64,000 nucleotides of DNA from a virus (lineage: Duplodnaviria > Caudoviricetes): the IMG/VR virus record IMGVR_UViG_3300031134_000001, positions 128,001 through 192,000 of that record. One strand, written 5' to 3'. The notes beneath the pieces are model-generated. The model had not been told where the DNA came from, made no database searches, and was given only the letters and a program-made list of their open reading frames with translations. Positions 30,160 to 40,410 of the stretch are shown piece by piece. The position numbers were made by a program, and so were the translations under genes. Every line of letters begins with the position of its first letter. Positions within the stretch are counted from its first letter, which is position 1.

Positions 30160-30795
30160 ATGTCCACGATCAAAGGTAAGTTCTTGACACTCGAAGGCGT
30201 TGACGCCAGTGGGAAGTCCACCAACATTCAACCGTTGGCGGAACATTTGCGCTCCCGCGGTTATAAGGTTCACGTGACGCGTGAGCCAGGTGGCAGTCCA
30301 GCTGCGGAAGCGATTCGCGGTGTCTTACTCAACAAGGATCTGGAAATGTCGGATGCGACTGAGCTTTTGCTCTTTCTCGCGGCGCGGCGTGACCACGTTG
30401 AGAAAGTCATCAAGCCCTATCTCGAAAAGGGTTACGTCGTGATCTCCGATCGCTTCAGTGATACGATGTACGCTTACCAAGGACATGCTCGTGGTCTGAG
30501 CGAAATGATGTTGTCGTTAGAGCAGACACTCGGCGGGGAGATCGAACCTGACTATACGCTGTTCTTCGATATCCCCTTCGAAGAAAGCTGCCGGCGCTTA
30601 GCAGCCCGTACTGAAAAGCAAGATCGCATGGACTTACAAGCCAGCGACTTCCGCCGTCGTTGTTTTGACGGTTACCAAATCCGCTTCAAAGAAAACCAAC
30701 ACCGCATGCACCGGATCGATGCTCTACCTAACTCCAAGGTCGTGAAAGAGAAAGTGCTCGCCTGGGCTAACACAGTGTTTGAAAACCTGAACTAA
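30160..30795 (+). CDS. tmk: thymidylate kinase
   Basis: P-loop LEGVDASGKST, TREPGG, SDRF. Confidence 0.95.
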   Translation: MSTIKGKFLTLEGVDASGKSTNIQPLAEHLRSRGYKVHVTREPGGSPAAEAIRGVLLNKDLEMSDATELLLFLAARRDHVEKVIKPYLEKGYVVISDRFSDTMYAYQGHARGLSEMMLSLEQTLGGEIEPDYTLFFDIPFEESCRRLAARTEKQDRMDLQASDFRRRCFDGYQIRFKENQHRMHRIDALPNSKVVKEKVLAWANTVFENLN

Positions 30796-32698: not shown

Positions 32699-33769
32699 AT
32701 GACCACGAACGGCCCACAAATCATCGCTACCATGCTCGCCAACAAGAAGATCAGCCCGCAAGAAGCGCAGTATCTGGAAATGATGGGTACTGTCCACAAC
32801 AACGGCCAAGTCAAGACCGATCGCACAGGCACCGGCACGACATCCCAGTTCGGCAAGATGATGCGCTTCAATCTCCAGGAAGGCTTCCCACTCCTGTCGA
32901 CCAAGAAGATCCACCTGAAGTCGATCATCCATGAACTGATCTGGTTCCTCCAGGGTTCGACCAACATCGCCTACCTGAAAGAAAACGGCGTGTCCATCTG
33001 GGATGAATGGGCTGACGCCGACGGTGAACTCGGTCCGGTCTATGGCGCGCAGTGGCGCCGTTGGCAAGACACCAAGATCATGCATCCAGTCAATGACGCA
33101 GTCAAGATTGAACAGATGCAAAAGAACGGTTACGTTCACATGGGCGACACTACGTATCGCGGTGTAGCTGGTAAAATGGTTGTGTTGGTCAAGGAATACG
33201 ACCAGATTAGCGACGCCATGCACGCGATCAAGACCACCCCTGACTCGCGCCGCATCATCGTCTCGGGCTGGAACGTTGGCGATGTGCCAGGCATGAAGCT
33301 GCCGCCGTGCCACGCCCTGTACCAGTTCTACGTGTCGGACCTGACGCTGGAAGAACGGGTGAAATGGTTTAACAAAACCACTGGCAACTATATCAAGGGT
33401 CCTGCTTCGCACGAGATGTACGACAAAGAAGGCGTGCCGCGCAAGAAGCTGTCTTGCATGTTGTACCAGCGCTCGGCTGATATTTTCCTGGGTGTGCCGT
33501 TCAACATCGCGTCGTACGCAATCCTGACCCACATGTTCGCCCAACAAGCTGACATGGCGGTTGGTGAATTCATCTGGGTCGGCGGTGATTGCCACGTCTA
33601 CTCGAACCACACGGAACAGGTCGAGACGCAGTTGCTGCGCGAAGCACGCCCGCTGCCGCAACTCGTGATCAAGCGTAAGCCTGATTCGATCTTCGACTAC
33701 AAGTTCGAAGACTTCGAAGTCGTCGGCTACGATCCGCATCCGGGTATCAAAGCCCCAGTGGCGGTGTAA
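32699..33769 (+). CDS. thyA: thymidylate synthase
   Basis: [30 protein letters not shown]; two insertions relative to E. coli ThyA. Confidence 0.97.
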
Positions 33770-34006: not shown

Positions 34007-34153
34007 ATGGAAGACTACGATGACGGATTCCTTTCCAACGGGATCGGATACGATGACGATGAGGAAACGACCTGGACGAGCATTATCGTCAAGATCATCC
34101 TCTTGGGATTGTTCGCGGTGTTTCTGATCTGCACGGAAGGTAAGCATGTCTAA
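34007..34153 (+). CDS. small membrane protein (48 aa)
   Basis: Acidic N-terminus followed by a TM helix. Confidence 0.5.
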   Translation: MEDYDDGFLSNGIGYDDDEETTWTSIIVKIILLGLFAVFLICTEGKHV

Positions 34154-34466
34154 AGAAGATGATTCCGTTGCTAAGTGGATACTGGCCATTCCTATTATCG
34201 TGGTAGTTATGGTGCTGTACTTGCTTGTCAGTGTTTATCGGATAAATCAAAAAGCGGCCGATGAACTACCTGCCAGGCAAGCCAGTTATCAGCAGTATCT
34301 ATTGACCCATCAATGTGTGGTCACCGGTTACGCTGGCAAACACGCCATGGAAATTTACCAGTGCGAACACGGCATGCTCCTGTCGCGTGATATCTGGACG
34401 CAAATTGAAGTCAAGGAGATAAGGGATGACCTTCGATTATTTTCAAAAGATGTCGCAAGACATTAA
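34146..34466 (+). CDS. membrane-anchored hypothetical protein (106 aa)
   Basis: N-terminal TM; two Cys in the soluble part. Confidence 0.6.
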   Translation: MSKEDDSVAKWILAIPIIVVVMVLYLLVSVYRINQKAADELPARQASYQQYLLTHQCVVTGYAGKHAMEIYQCEHGMLLSRDIWTQIEVKEIRDDLRLFSKDVARH

Positions 34467-34647
34467 CGCCCGCTTTCGCAAAATTACTCAGGAAACGTTT
34501 GCTGCCATTTCTGAAAGTTTTGATCGTCAGCGGGCGCAAGTAGCCACTAAAGGTCACAAAAAGAAAGTGTTCCACAAGAAGTCTCGACAAAAGGTAAAAC
34601 CTTCGTCGGTGCTGCAAAATCTTCTGAATAAAAATAACTCGCTATAA
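34426..34647 (+). CDS. small basic hypothetical protein
   Basis: SD aaggag; Lys-rich C-terminus. Confidence 0.5.
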   Translation: MTFDYFQKMSQDINARFRKITQETFAAISESFDRQRAQVATKGHKKKVFHKKSRQKVKPSSVLQNLLNKNNSL

Positions 34648-34667
34648 GTCAACAACAAAGGAAAGTA

Positions 34668-35678
34668 ATGCAACTCGATTTGAACGCAACACAAGGCAAG
34701 CGGGTCCATGCGTCGGACAAACGCATGATCAATGCTACCACCGACGTCAACCAACTCGTACCGTTCAAGTACAAGTGGGCGTGGGACATGTATCTGGCAG
34801 CCTGCGAGAACCAGTGGATGCCAACTGAACACGACATGCGTGCTGATGCCGGTCAGTGGCAGTCGAGTGTTGTCAGCCAAGCTGATCGCTGCGCTGTGTC
34901 GCGCGCGCTGTACGCGTCGGTGTTCCAGTACGGTCAAGGCATGGACAGCATCGTCCTGGGCATCTATCGTCACCTTACGGCGCCTGAAGCGCGTCAGTAC
35001 CTGCTGCGTCAAAGCTTCGAAGAAGGTCTGTCCTCGCATGCGTTCTCTCACATCGTAGAAGCGCTGGGTGACATCCCTGAAGATACGATCGACCGTTCGA
35101 TCCGTAAAGACTACCTCGCGCCTTACCTGGCCGTGCTGTCCGATCCGAAGTACAAGACCGGCACGGTCGATACTGACCAAGCGTTGCTGCGCGCCCTCGC
35201 GGTGTACACCGTGACCATGAAAGGGTTGTTCCCGCTCGTGGACATTATCCAAGTGCTGGAACTGGGTCAGCGTGGCAAGATGGCGTCCGTGGCAGCTATG
35301 CACCGTCTGGAACTTCGGGACTTGACGATGCATTGCAATTTCGGTGTCGAAGTCATCAACGCCATCAAGACCGAGAACCCGCATCTCTGGACGCCTGCGC
35401 TGCGCGCTGAGCTGACCAACCTCATCACTCAGGCCGTCGATATCGAAGCGGCGTACATCGGTCAGATCTCGCCAGCAGACGACGCCAAGTACGCGATGTT
35501 CCTGCGCATCGTGGCCAACCGCCGCGCTAACCAAATCGGTCTGGACAACATCTATCCGAATCCTGGCAAGAATCCTTTCCCGTGGATCGGTGAACTGCTG
35601 GGTCTGCGCAAAGATGACGCCGGCTTCGAGGTGCGCGCCATGGAAACCAAAACCACAGAAACCCTGAGCTGGGACTAA
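34668..35678 (+). CDS. nrdB: ribonucleotide reductase beta (R2)-like protein lacking metal and radical residues
   Basis: Collinear with betaproteobacterial NrdB (VNQLVPFKYKWAW, QWMP, MHCNFG, ENPHLW, NPFPW, LSWD), but the ligands are substituted (see findings). Confidence 0.9.
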   Translation: MQLDLNATQGKRVHASDKRMINATTDVNQLVPFKYKWAWDMYLAACENQWMPTEHDMRADAGQWQSSVVSQADRCAVSRALYASVFQYGQGMDSIVLGIYRHLTAPEARQYLLRQSFEEGLSSHAFSHIVEALGDIPEDTIDRSIRKDYLAPYLAVLSDPKYKTGTVDTDQALLRALAVYTVTMKGLFPLVDIIQVLELGQRGKMASVAAMHRLELRDLTMHCNFGVEVINAIKTENPHLWTPALRAELTNLITQAVDIEAAYIGQISPADDAKYAMFLRIVANRRANQIGLDNIYPNPGKNPFPWIGELLGLRKDDAGFEVRAMETKTTETLSWD

Positions 35679-35742: not shown

Positions 35743-36549
35743 ATGAAAATTTCGAACATCCCGATGATCGTCGCTCTGCTGGCCACTGCCCTGGCTGGCT
35801 GCGGTAATGACCACCCACCCGCACCACAAGCGCAATACCAGCAACCTGTCGTCATCCAGCAAGCCCCAGCCGTTCAGCAAGACAACTCCGGCACCAACAT
35901 GCTCGCCGGCGCCGCCCTGGGCGCAGCTGCTGCCATGGCACTGTCCGATCGCGATCGTCACTACGACAACCGGCCTCGCCATGTCGAGTACGAGAACAAG
36001 ACCACGATCGTCAACAACTACCACGGCCCTAAGCCTGGTGTCGCGGCACCGGTCGCCGCTGCTGCTGTTGCCGCCGCGACACCAGCACGTACGCCGGTTT
36101 CCGATCAACTGGTGAACATGGCCAAAACGACGCCGCCTGTTGTCAAGCCCAGTTATGCTGCGCCGGGCACTGCCAGTCCAGTCCCAGCGCCGTCCCAAGC
36201 CTTCCTGACCGGCAACAAGACTCTGACCGTATCGAATACGCCAGCGGTCAAGTCGTACGCACCAGCAGCCGCTCCGGCGTTGCCTGCACCCAAGCCCATG
36301 TTGGCGTTGCCTGCACCTACCCAGGTCAGCTTGACCAAACCGGCACCGACGGCAATGCAAGTTCCTAAGACTGCACAGAACGCCATCCCGCGTCCATCGA
36401 ACTACAACTACAAACCACTGCAAGCATCGTACACGCCGACCAAGTCGTATTCGTCCAGCTCCTCGTACAAACCGTCCAAGAGCTACAGTAGTTCGAGCAG
36501 CTCGCGCAGCTCCAGCAGTTCGCGTAGTTCGAGTAGTTCCCGTCGTTAA
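35743..36549 (+). CDS. lipoprotein with Pro/Ala-rich body and Ser/Arg-rich tail (268 aa)
   Basis: SD aggag; lipobox LAGC; C-terminus SSSSSRSSSSSRSSSSSRR. Confidence 0.8.
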   Translation: MKISNIPMIVALLATALAGCGNDHPPAPQAQYQQPVVIQQAPAVQQDNSGTNMLAGAALGAAAAMALSDRDRHYDNRPRHVEYENKTTIVNNYHGPKPGVAAPVAAAAVAAATPARTPVSDQLVNMAKTTPPVVKPSYAAPGTASPVPAPSQAFLTGNKTLTVSNTPAVKSYAPAAAPALPAPKPMLALPAPTQVSLTKPAPTAMQVPKTAQNAIPRPSNYNYKPLQASYTPTKSYSSSSSYKPSKSYSSSSSSRSSSSSRSSSSSRR

Positions 36550-39507: not shown

Positions 39508-40410
39508 ATGGCAGCCTACCAGATTCACACGATCCAGATGGCCAACCATCGCAAGTTGAAAGATGGGATGCATCTTCTGGACACGACTGCCAAATCGGGC
39601 GTTCCTGCGTTCGCTCCTGTCTTTTCAAATGTGATGGCTTATAAGGACGGTACGCTGTCTGAAGAAGAATACACCCGTCGCTATTTGGAGAAAATGGCGG
39701 CATCCCAAGTTACTTCCCCGAGTATCTGGGAAGAGCTGTTAGTGCATAAGCAAGTGGCTGTGGCATGTTACTGCACACCAGGCAAGTTCTGCCACCGGCA
39801 TTTGTTTGTGCCGATCATGAAAGAGTATCTGGAAGAACGCGGTCACACGGTTGAACTCATGGGGGAGTTAGGTGGCAAGCAGTATTGCAACCACATCCCA
39901 GAAGCGATCGTATCGATTCCGTTTGAGCGTAAGATCATTCCGTTTTACACACGCGACCATGTGCTGTCGAACCACGCCCCTATCGGCTTTACTGTCAAGG
40001 ACATCCATTTCAAGCATGGTGAGATGTTCCTGATGTACTGCAAGGCTGTGTTGATGGGCGACACGGAAACAGCCAACAAGATCCTGGTCACTGATAACCC
40101 ACAAGCGTGCAAGATGTTAGGCAAGCGCGTTAAGCCGTGGGATGAGCAAAAGTGGTTACTTAAGCGGCGCGGTATCAGTAACCGTTTGTGTTACGAGAAA
40201 GCGGTGCAAAACCCAGAGGTGGATGAATATCTCCTCGGCACCAATAACGATATTTTGGTGGAGGCCAGTCCCTCCGACCGCATCTGGGGTGTGGGTATTG
40301 CTGAGAACGATCCCCGTATCTTTGACGTTAACGAATGGCTGGGACTAAACCTATTGGGTGAGTCCTGGATGTGGGCTCGACGTAAGCGACAAGAAGATGT
40401 TATCTTTTGA
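39508..40410 (+). CDS. DUF488-like + NADAR (YbiA) fusion protein
   Basis: N-terminal CYC..GKFCHRH. C-terminal LSN.......F...E...MY.KA, K.LGK.VK..D...W and LVEASPSDRIWGVG. Confidence 0.85.
   Translation: MAAYQIHTIQMANHRKLKDGMHLLDTTAKSGVPAFAPVFSNVMAYKDGTLSEEEYTRRYLEKMAASQVTSPSIWEELLVHKQVAVACYCTPGKFCHRHLFVPIMKEYLEERGHTVELMGELGGKQYCNHIPEAIVSIPFERKIIPFYTRDHVLSNHAPIGFTVKDIHFKHGEMFLMYCKAVLMGDTETANKILVTDNPQACKMLGKRVKPWDEQKWLLKRRGISNRLCYEKAVQNPEVDEYLLGTNNDILVEASPSDRIWGVGIAENDPRIFDVNEWLGLNLLGESWMWARRKRQEDVIF

Follow-up and report, generated by a model that had tools for sequence, protein, structure and literature searches.

The DNA analysed here (the window, 64,000 nucleotides) comprises bases 128001–192000 of the virus record IMGVR_UViG_3300031134_000001, a 271,026-bp genome with direct terminal repeats that is rated complete. 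At positions 34668–35678, the window contains an uninterrupted open reading frame (ORF) on the plus strand, with an ATG start, a TAA stop and a Shine-Dalgarno-like run, AAAGGAAAG, ahead of the ATG. We refer to its product, a pseudo-subunit that resembles the small subunit (R2, NrdB) of class I ribonucleotide reductase (RNR), as R2*. RNR sets the supply of DNA precursors. R2* scores 159 bits against PF00268, the RNR small chain, with nearly the whole model covered, and 337 bits against the NCBIfam model NF005550 for the betaproteobacterial-type class Ia NrdB (PRK07209), for which the equivalog cut-off is 309. The nearest solved structures found by phmmer are 6y2n (7e-77) and the R2c of Chlamydia trachomatis (1syy, 4d8f and 2ani, about 5e-70). 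An antisense ORF (34554–35534, minus strand) was rejected as a by-product of composition, the homology being entirely in the sense frame. The coordinates of the gene, of its diagnostic residues and of its neighbours are collected in Table 1.

Table 1. Features in and around the R2* gene (window positions; L numbers designate related loci)
Feature	Position	Strand	Evidence or remark
Thymidylate kinase (Tmk)	30160..30795	+	PF02223 1.4e-44; syntenic in L015, L017, L018, L022, L027
Thymidylate synthase (ThyA), about 900 bp upstream of R2*	32699..33769	+	PF00303 1.1e-111
Small hydrophobic ORF between ThyA and R2*	34146..34466	+	tblastn matches just upstream of R2* in L004, L017, L022, L027
R2* gene, 336-residue R2/NrdB-like pseudo-subunit	34668..35678	+	PF00268, NF005550, AlphaFold2 model, structural superposition
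N-terminal arm and first helix, residues 12–54, including W50 (E. coli W48)	34701..34829	+	most conserved part
Y88, first metal ligand position (E. coli D84)	34929..34931	+	D in every intact relative
Former ExxH...Y motif: E119 and H124 kept, S122 for the His ligand, F126 for the radical Tyr, clade-specific H128 for Tyr	35022..35051	+	
Y180 (canonical Phe) and K185 (third carboxylate ligand, E. coli E204)	35205..35222	+	
D218 kept (E. coli D237), L219 for the fourth carboxylate E238, H222 kept (H241)	35319..35333	+	
C-terminal tail, residues 312–336, predicted disordered	35601..35675	+	relay segment relaxed, terminal anchor conserved

R2* has the homology and the fold of a class I R2 but not its six metal ligands (Asp/Glu, ExxH, Glu, ExxH), its radical residue or its full set of radical-transfer residues. 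We mapped the residues by three methods, namely phmmer to solved structures, MAFFT with intact relatives, and hmmalign. In E. coli numbering, W48 corresponds to W50 of R2*, D84 to Y88, E115 to E119, H118 to S122, Y122 to F126, E204 to K185, D237 to D218, E238 to L219, H241 to H222 and Y356 to T327. Two of the six metal ligands are kept (E119 and H222); the other four positions are occupied by Y88, S122, K185 and L219. The radical tyrosine is a phenylalanine (F126), and the C-terminal relay tyrosine is a threonine (T327). Among the radical-transfer residues, W50 and D218 are kept, Tyr356 is lost and the tail segment NFFETRV is relaxed. The three methods concur on all these residues except the first ligand, which is Q90 in the phmmer alignment with 1syy and Y88 in the others. 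A preliminary description of this DNA had listed the same substitutions, and all of them are found where it placed them; so are the N-terminal segment VNQLVPFKYKWAW (residues 27–39) and the C-terminal residues F320, E321, R323, E326 and LSWD (333–336), which it had reported as preserved. It had also allowed that realignment might restore the ligands. Since neither Y88 nor Q90 is a carboxylate, and since D93, the acid closest by, falls opposite a canonical Asn and is replaced by Gly in all other members of the clade described below, realignment does not give a metal site back.

The same defects recur in relatives of R2*. The nearest database protein (P0001), encoded on a 184-kb contig, is 96% identical and is followed by three proteins at 48–53% identity (P0002, P0003 and P0012); all four carry the defects of R2*. 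After P0012 come thousands of intact betaproteobacterial NrdBs with 47–49% identity to R2*. A scan of viral contigs added L017, L018 (272 and 226 kb) and L022 (322 kb), and profile searches added P0122, P0123, P0125 and P0272. The resulting clade consists of about 11 clusters at 90% identity, all on phage-like contigs or on phage contigs of 226–323 kb. Since the same pattern is found in relatives that are 42–53% identical, we can exclude chance as its source. Maximum-likelihood analysis places the 12 degenerate rows together on one side of a branch for which the Shimodaira–Hasegawa-like approximate likelihood ratio test (SH-aLRT) gives a value of 99, and the branches of the clade are 3–10 times longer than those of intact NrdBs. 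Long-branch attraction may have contributed to the grouping, but its members also have derived characters in common. Lysine occupies position 185 in nine of 10 non-redundant members, the exception being the basal P0125. Further derived states common to the clade are Lys328 for Gln, Gly312 for Asp, His128 for Tyr and Tyr180 for Phe. A five-residue deletion near residue 270 is present in all aligned members except the L022 type; in the L017/L018 type the gap is two residues. One alignment (A1) that includes intact relatives also shows an internal duplication of about 100 residues in an intact-type NrdB of 491 residues (P0004), which is possibly an assembly artefact.

The residues that once made up the cofactor site have diverged within the clade. 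In eight members, position 88 is Y, Y, N, G, S, V, V and D, and position 126 is F, F, Q, H, F, Y, Y and Y in the same order. The least-derived members, L022 and P0122, have Asp or Gly at the first position and still have both remaining glutamates, one histidine and the tyrosine. These two already carry Arg at the position of His118, Lys at that of Glu204 and Ala at that of Tyr356. From this distribution, it would seem that the metals first gave way to positively charged side chains and that the orphaned carboxylates were lost afterwards. A tblastn search of 50,697 phage records with R2* and with a more distant protein of the L026 type returned only intact NrdBs of at most 38% identity, and no member of the clade in an isolate. 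The literature searched, the coverage of which was incomplete, did not describe a phage NrdB that is inactive or without ligands. None of the sequencing runs recorded as RNA has the stretch; the DNA runs with it are metagenomes from the phyllosphere, its possible source, and from straw, wastewater, dairy and food production.

An AlphaFold2 (AF2) model of R2*, computed from a 48-row alignment, predicts a confident R2 fold, with a predicted local distance difference test (pLDDT) score of 86.6 and a predicted template modelling (pTM) score of 0.85. It superposes on C. trachomatis NrdB (4m1i) with a template modelling (TM) score of 0.84. Residues 12–54 hold 24 of the 62 positions that are conserved alike in R2* and in intact NrdBs, and many of these are invariant in alignments A1 and A3. 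Ahead of this arm (window 34668–34700), R2* and P0001 lack the N-terminal acidic-aromatic motif and the linker that are typical of the family. In this family, cellular NrdBs, intact phage NrdBs and most of the dead ones start with M-x-L-S/N/D-F/W-D/E-D/E-E and continue with a variable low-complexity linker before the R2 core; the motif was seen in P0005–P0008, P0273, P0276 and P0290 and at L017:7959, L018:7959 and L022:7953.

We then asked which residues are held constant in the clade by comparing 10 non-redundant members with 24 intact relatives site by site. Constraint is relaxed at ligand positions 88, 122 and 219, at the radical position 126 and at several second-shell positions. The fourth lost ligand position, 185, is unlike these in being fixed as Lys. 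The tail segment NFFETRV, invariant in the intact members and containing a glutamate that we equate with E. coli E350, is relaxed as well: positions 318–324 and 327 vary. Across the clade, the relay position is T, S, N, A, K or R, and every member lacks the tyrosine. Conserved are E119, H124 and D218 in the core, and E326, K328, T332, L333, W335 and the terminal acid at the end of the tail. The tail anchor of the clade reads E-x-K-x3-T-L-x-W-D/E, in which the terminal L-x-W-D/E is the same as in the intact NrdBs of the family. E326, K328, L333 and W335 are 90–100% conserved within the clade, and all four lie in the segment modelled with a pLDDT below 50 (residues 314–336). That residues of a disordered tail are almost invariant implies a binding partner. 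The C-terminal tail of class I R2 is known as the peptide that binds the large subunit (R1, NrdA), and this has been tested for a viral R2 (PMC2900304). Given the conserved anchor sequence, the tail of R2* is predicted to bind NrdA too. A complex prediction of residues 290–336 with residues 250–958 of NrdA from Usitatibacter palustris (L029), a protein that may not be the NrdA of the host, folded without alignments, scored 0.01 against a mark of 0.34 and speaks neither for nor against binding. In the same bacterium, nrdA and nrdB are separated by a 105-residue ORF that matches no Pfam model (L029:5608–5925).

The gene is under selection. The ratio of non-synonymous to synonymous substitution rates (dN/dS), calculated by the method of Nei and Gojobori, is 0.056 for R2* and its 96% relative in L027 (dS 0.32, dN 0.018) and 0.116 for L017 and L018. 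Pairs of intact phage NrdBs give 0.05–0.11. Over short distances, the constraint on the dead R2* is as strong as that on live NrdBs. The reading frame is open in every clade member, and the gene is retained across phages in which a core protein has diverged to 48% identity. Divergence is faster between sub-lineages: R2* is 43% identical between the phage of the window and genome G001, a pair in which the core protein is 72% identical. The dN/dS values show none of the neutral decay that the preliminary description had named as a concern. Together with two ligands out of six, the loss of the radical and relay tyrosines, the confident fold and the conserved tail anchor, they support its view of R2* as a selectively deactivated pseudo-enzyme and not a decaying gene.

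The core/structural protein (phrog_3289) places the phage among the phiKZ-like jumbo phages. By this protein the nearest isolates are jumbo phages of Burkholderia and Ralstonia, which at 34–36% identity are too distant to name a host. A search of the complete 271-kb genome found a single PF00268 match, the R2* gene itself, and no match to PF02867 (R1), PF13597 (the class III enzyme NrdD), PF03477 (ATP-cone) or PF07972 (NrdI), which answers the earlier call to look for a separate nrdA or nrdB. A large subunit is also absent from four other genomes of the R2* type (G001–G004, two of them complete). Among relatives with an intact NrdB, NrdA lies a few kilobases away in G007 and G008; no R1 is present in the complete G005 and G009, and none was detected in the partial G006 and G010. 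Two complete jumbo-phage genomes with terminal repeats (L012, 249 kb, and L023, 312 kb) encode no R1 but an intact NrdB, in which the full ligand set and both the radical and the relay Tyr are present. These orphan active NrdBs presumably use the NrdA of the host. Two phages with nrdB alone have been reported, and the role of incomplete nrd sets is unknown (Dwivedi et al., PMC3653736).

R2* lies in a co-directional block of genes for thymidylate kinase, thymidylate synthase, small ORFs, R2* and, further on, a NADAR-domain protein; in L027, a gene for dihydrofolate reductase (DHFR) comes after the R2* block. The order ThyA, small genes, and R2* or intact NrdB is common to L002, L015, L017, L018, L022 and L027; in L003 and L005, the ThyA match is at the far upstream edge of the locus. 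This block order surrounds R2* in L002, L003, L017, L018 and L022 and an intact NrdB in L015 and L005. In the latter two phages, the core protein is 36% identical to that of the window phage, and the records are 82–86% complete with no R1 detected. Intact NrdBs occupy the place of R2* after Tmk/ThyA in related phiKZ-like phages, which marks R2* by its position as derived from an orphan phage NrdB of the betaproteobacterial class Ia type. As those 82–86% complete records yielded no R1, the ancestral phage NrdB would have worked with the large subunit of the host.

Several neighbours have features of their own. The thymidylate synthase of the window has 356 residues against a model of 266 positions and contains about 68 inserted residues. 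The syntenic genes in L017 (5494–6558) and L018 (6108–7151) encode proteins of 27% identity to it and might specify a different pyrimidine-modifying enzyme. The gene next after R2* (35743–36549) encodes a protein of 268 residues with a lipoprotein-like N-terminus, a Pro/Ala-rich middle, a Ser-rich tail and no Pfam match; partial matches to it come after R2* in L002, L017, L018 and L027. Further downstream, positions 39508–40410 encode a fusion of DUF488-N3a and NADAR domains that is 55–97% identical to its counterparts in L017, L018, L027 and L003.

We turned to the question as to which known system R2* resembles. It has 47–49% identity to cellular betaproteobacterial class Ia NrdBs and the same fold, N-terminal arm and L-x-W-D/E tail. 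It differs from them by the loss of four of the six ligands and of the radical and relay tyrosines, by the deletion near residue 270 and by the absence of NrdA from the genome. This last point is not strictly defining, as intact orphan NrdBs exist in complete relatives. The parent family is the betaproteobacterial-type class Ia NrdB (NF005550), which has a radical Tyr, and not class Ic. Class Ic proteins have Phe at the radical position, Glu as first ligand and six Mn/Fe ligands; R2* has the Phe, but also Tyr in place of the first ligand and three further ligands lost, and its nearest intact relatives carry the Tyr and Asp of class Ia. R2lox was rejected since the Mn/Fe ligands are lost, and no NF0062xx match was obtained at 1e-5. 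Class Ie R2s keep the Asp, both His and the Tyr, which is made into 3,4-dihydroxyphenylalanine (DOPA), while their three Glu are replaced by Q/V, S/P and K, and they need NrdI (PMC11846895). The QSK and VPK variants are encoded in nrdFIE or nrdHIEF operons and derive from class Ib (PMC11846895). Substituted ligands and a lysine in the former metal site are features that R2* has in common with class Ie NrdF. R2* nevertheless does not belong to this class: it lacks the Asp, one His and the Tyr of the class Ie set, keeps one Glu, and has neither NrdI, R1 nor the operon setting.

In its possible way of working, R2* comes closest to yeast Rnr4 or to a viral R2 made inactive by engineering. Yeast Rnr4 has no iron ligands, yet it is required in the active Rnr2–Rnr4 heterodimer. 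Like R2*, Rnr4 is an R2 paralogue that has lost iron ligands and the radical, and has kept the fold and the C-terminal tail; it is selected for a non-catalytic role in RNR, as R2* may be. In contrast to R2*, Rnr4 has its partner, Rnr2, encoded in the same genome, whereas the only possible partners of R2* are host proteins; the ligands lost are also different ones. The large subunit offers a parallel in the betaherpesvirus R1 homologues M45/UL45, which are catalytically inactive and kept for another role. Here too an inactive viral homologue of an RNR subunit is retained for a different purpose, but it is a large subunit, from a eukaryotic virus, and its function is unrelated to nucleotides. 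The work on vaccinia F4 mentions betaherpesviruses solely as a contrast, to show how unevenly RNR genes are conserved among viruses (PMC2900304). F4 itself is an orphan R2 that works with the R1 of the host through its C-terminal peptide (PMC2900304). Its inactive variant Y300F, in which the R1-binding C-terminus is intact, has a dominant-negative effect that needs the R1-binding peptide (PMC2900304). The replacement of Tyr356 by Thr makes R2* a natural counterpart of Y300F. Unlike R2*, F4 is naturally active and its dead form is a laboratory construct; in R2*, the metal site is lost as well.

By its residues, R2* cannot assemble a dinuclear site, and it has no conserved radical-bearing or relay residue. 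Since the metal site, the radical and the relay residues are lost, the tail is kept, the phage has no RNR and selection is strong, R2* should act by binding and not by catalysis. Our best explanation, to which we give an even chance of being correct, is that R2* is a non-catalytic binder of the class Ia RNR of the host that acts by non-productive occupancy or tuning. We surmise that Lys185 takes the place of the metal in the empty site, where it would pair with E119 and neutralise it; in the least-derived members, the Arg at the His118 position would likewise stand in for a metal. The four-helix bundle could thereby fold without a cofactor. The conserved disordered tail would dock in the beta-tail site of host NrdA, and the dimer surface would pair with itself or with host NrdB. 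The simplest effect of a dead beta subunit with a working tail would be the non-productive occupancy of the host alpha subunit, that is, a dominant-negative tuning of host class Ia RNR. By the behaviour of vaccinia F4 Y300F, R2* would compete with active R2 for R1.

Two sets of observations speak against this explanation. The phage has no RNR yet encodes ThyA and Tmk (and DHFR in L027). It needs deoxynucleotide flux, so that plain inhibition of the sole available RNR looks costly. In addition, the clade-specific changes in the tail (Gln to Lys328, and Gly to Thr or Ser) could point to a changed partner instead of NrdA. R2* may inhibit or support host RNR, and the reading of R2* as a decoy of host NrdB, proposed in the preliminary description, is plausible. 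A supportive role is about as defensible as that of a decoy, although we rate it as less probable than the best explanation. As a beta-prime subunit similar to yeast Rnr4, R2* would form a heterodimer with host NrdB or join the alpha2-beta2 complex and would stabilise, multiply or re-target host RNR, for example to a phage complex for deoxynucleoside triphosphate (dNTP) synthesis. R2* is indeed a ligand-deficient R2 under selection, as expected of such a subunit, and class Ia RNR works through one beta protomer at a time. A phage without any RNR must depend on that of its host, and the R2* gene sits within the Tmk–ThyA nucleotide block. Moreover, R2* and intact NrdBs hardly differ in the N-terminal arm and first helix, and from an ancestor that was an intact orphan NrdB working with host alpha, continued cooperation is the smaller evolutionary step. 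On the other hand, the stability of R2 dimers makes exchange with pre-made host beta2 doubtful, and no reason is evident for a working phage NrdB to give up its cofactor. The long branches of the clade are also unexpected for the partner of a highly conserved host protein, though the lost catalytic constraint may explain them.

The changed tail is one of several features that fit a repurposed scaffold, in which the R2 fold and tail would bind a non-RNR protein of phage or host, or in which the remodelled pocket (E119, Y180, K185, H222) would bind a small ligand. The clade has conserved replacements of its own in core and tail (H128, Y180, K185, G312 and K328), the sub-lineages diverge fast (43% for R2* against 72% for the core protein) alongside strong short-term selection, and many other ligand-poor R2 homologues on phage-like contigs have no tail altogether. 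We nevertheless regard this as improbable: the terminal L-x-W-D/E anchor is identical to that of the intact NrdBs of the family, and, small ORFs apart, no conserved neighbour gene stands out as a partner. That R2* is still an enzyme, with a new metal-free or mononuclear radical generator operating through Y88 or another residue, is very unlikely. W50, D218, E119 and H222 do remain, and class Ie R2s with three substituted ligands, once suspect, turned out to be active (PMC11846895). Those proteins, however, keep the Asp, both His, the Tyr and their operon partners, none of which holds for R2*. In the clade, no redox-capable core residue is conserved, positions 88 and 126 both vary, the relay Tyr of the tail is absent throughout with its segment decayed, and the genome has no NrdI and no R1. 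We therefore discard the metal-free chemistry through Y88 that the preliminary description had offered as an alternative, as this residue is not conserved. Neutral decay of a recently inactivated nrdB would account for branches 3–10 times longer than those of intact NrdBs, but it is hardly credible given dN/dS values of 0.056 and 0.116, open frames, Lys185 in nine of 10 members, a conserved tail anchor and a gene kept down to 48% core-protein identity; the selection data refute neutral drift of R2*.

Ligand-poor R2 homologues extend beyond this clade. A profile of the clade matched 3,386 of 1.84 billion representative proteins. Among the best 150 of these 3,386 matches, 99 could be aligned at all six ligand positions and 33 of the 99 are canonical; at least 41 proteins shorter than 560 residues have three ligands or fewer, and about ten long proteins are probably intein-containing and misaligned. 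R2 homologues with zero to two ligands include P0139, P0147, P0193, P0204, P0210, P0215, P0221, P0230, P0234, P0242, P0246, P0268 and P0269 as well as the products of L026:7731–9077 and L031:3836–5182. Many ligand-poor R2s are extended by 100–350 residues at the N-terminus, carry Trp, Met or Cys where the radical residue would be, and lack a C-terminal tail that could be aligned. Since many have no tail, these proteins need not have one common function. P0125, P0204 and P0139 are on short contigs; those of P0125 and P0204 contain small unknown ORFs as in phages, and that of P0139 is too short to judge. Ligand-poor R2 homologues therefore seem to be diverse in phages, and the groups may be independent pseudo-R2 families. 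The R2* clade would then be one of several independent ligand-poor phage R2 families with dozens of representatives at 50% identity.

R2*, P0001, P0270, P0121 and P0272 all pass the equivalog cut-off of NF005550, and the name given by JGI is 'ribonucleoside-diphosphate reductase beta chain'. Automatic annotation thus over-calls RNR and credits phage genomes with an activity that they cannot have. R2* is also a natural experiment on the stability of the R2 fold without metals. The wider proposal is that a lineage of phiKZ-like jumbo phages turned an orphan NrdB into a cofactor-free protein that seizes host class Ia RNR via the surfaces at which the subunits of that enzyme meet. This protein would be either the first found in nature to inhibit a bacterial class Ia RNR or the first beta-prime from a virus or bacterium, and we hold this proposal tentatively, at a little short of an even chance. 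Defence systems, DRT2 and DRT4 among them, sense phage-driven changes in dNTPs (bioRxiv 10.64898/2026.10.27.754916). If the proposal is true, a non-catalytic phage protein that engages host RNR would represent a new kind of host take-over factor, and R2* would be directly at hand to probe or inhibit the class Ia RNR of bacteria.

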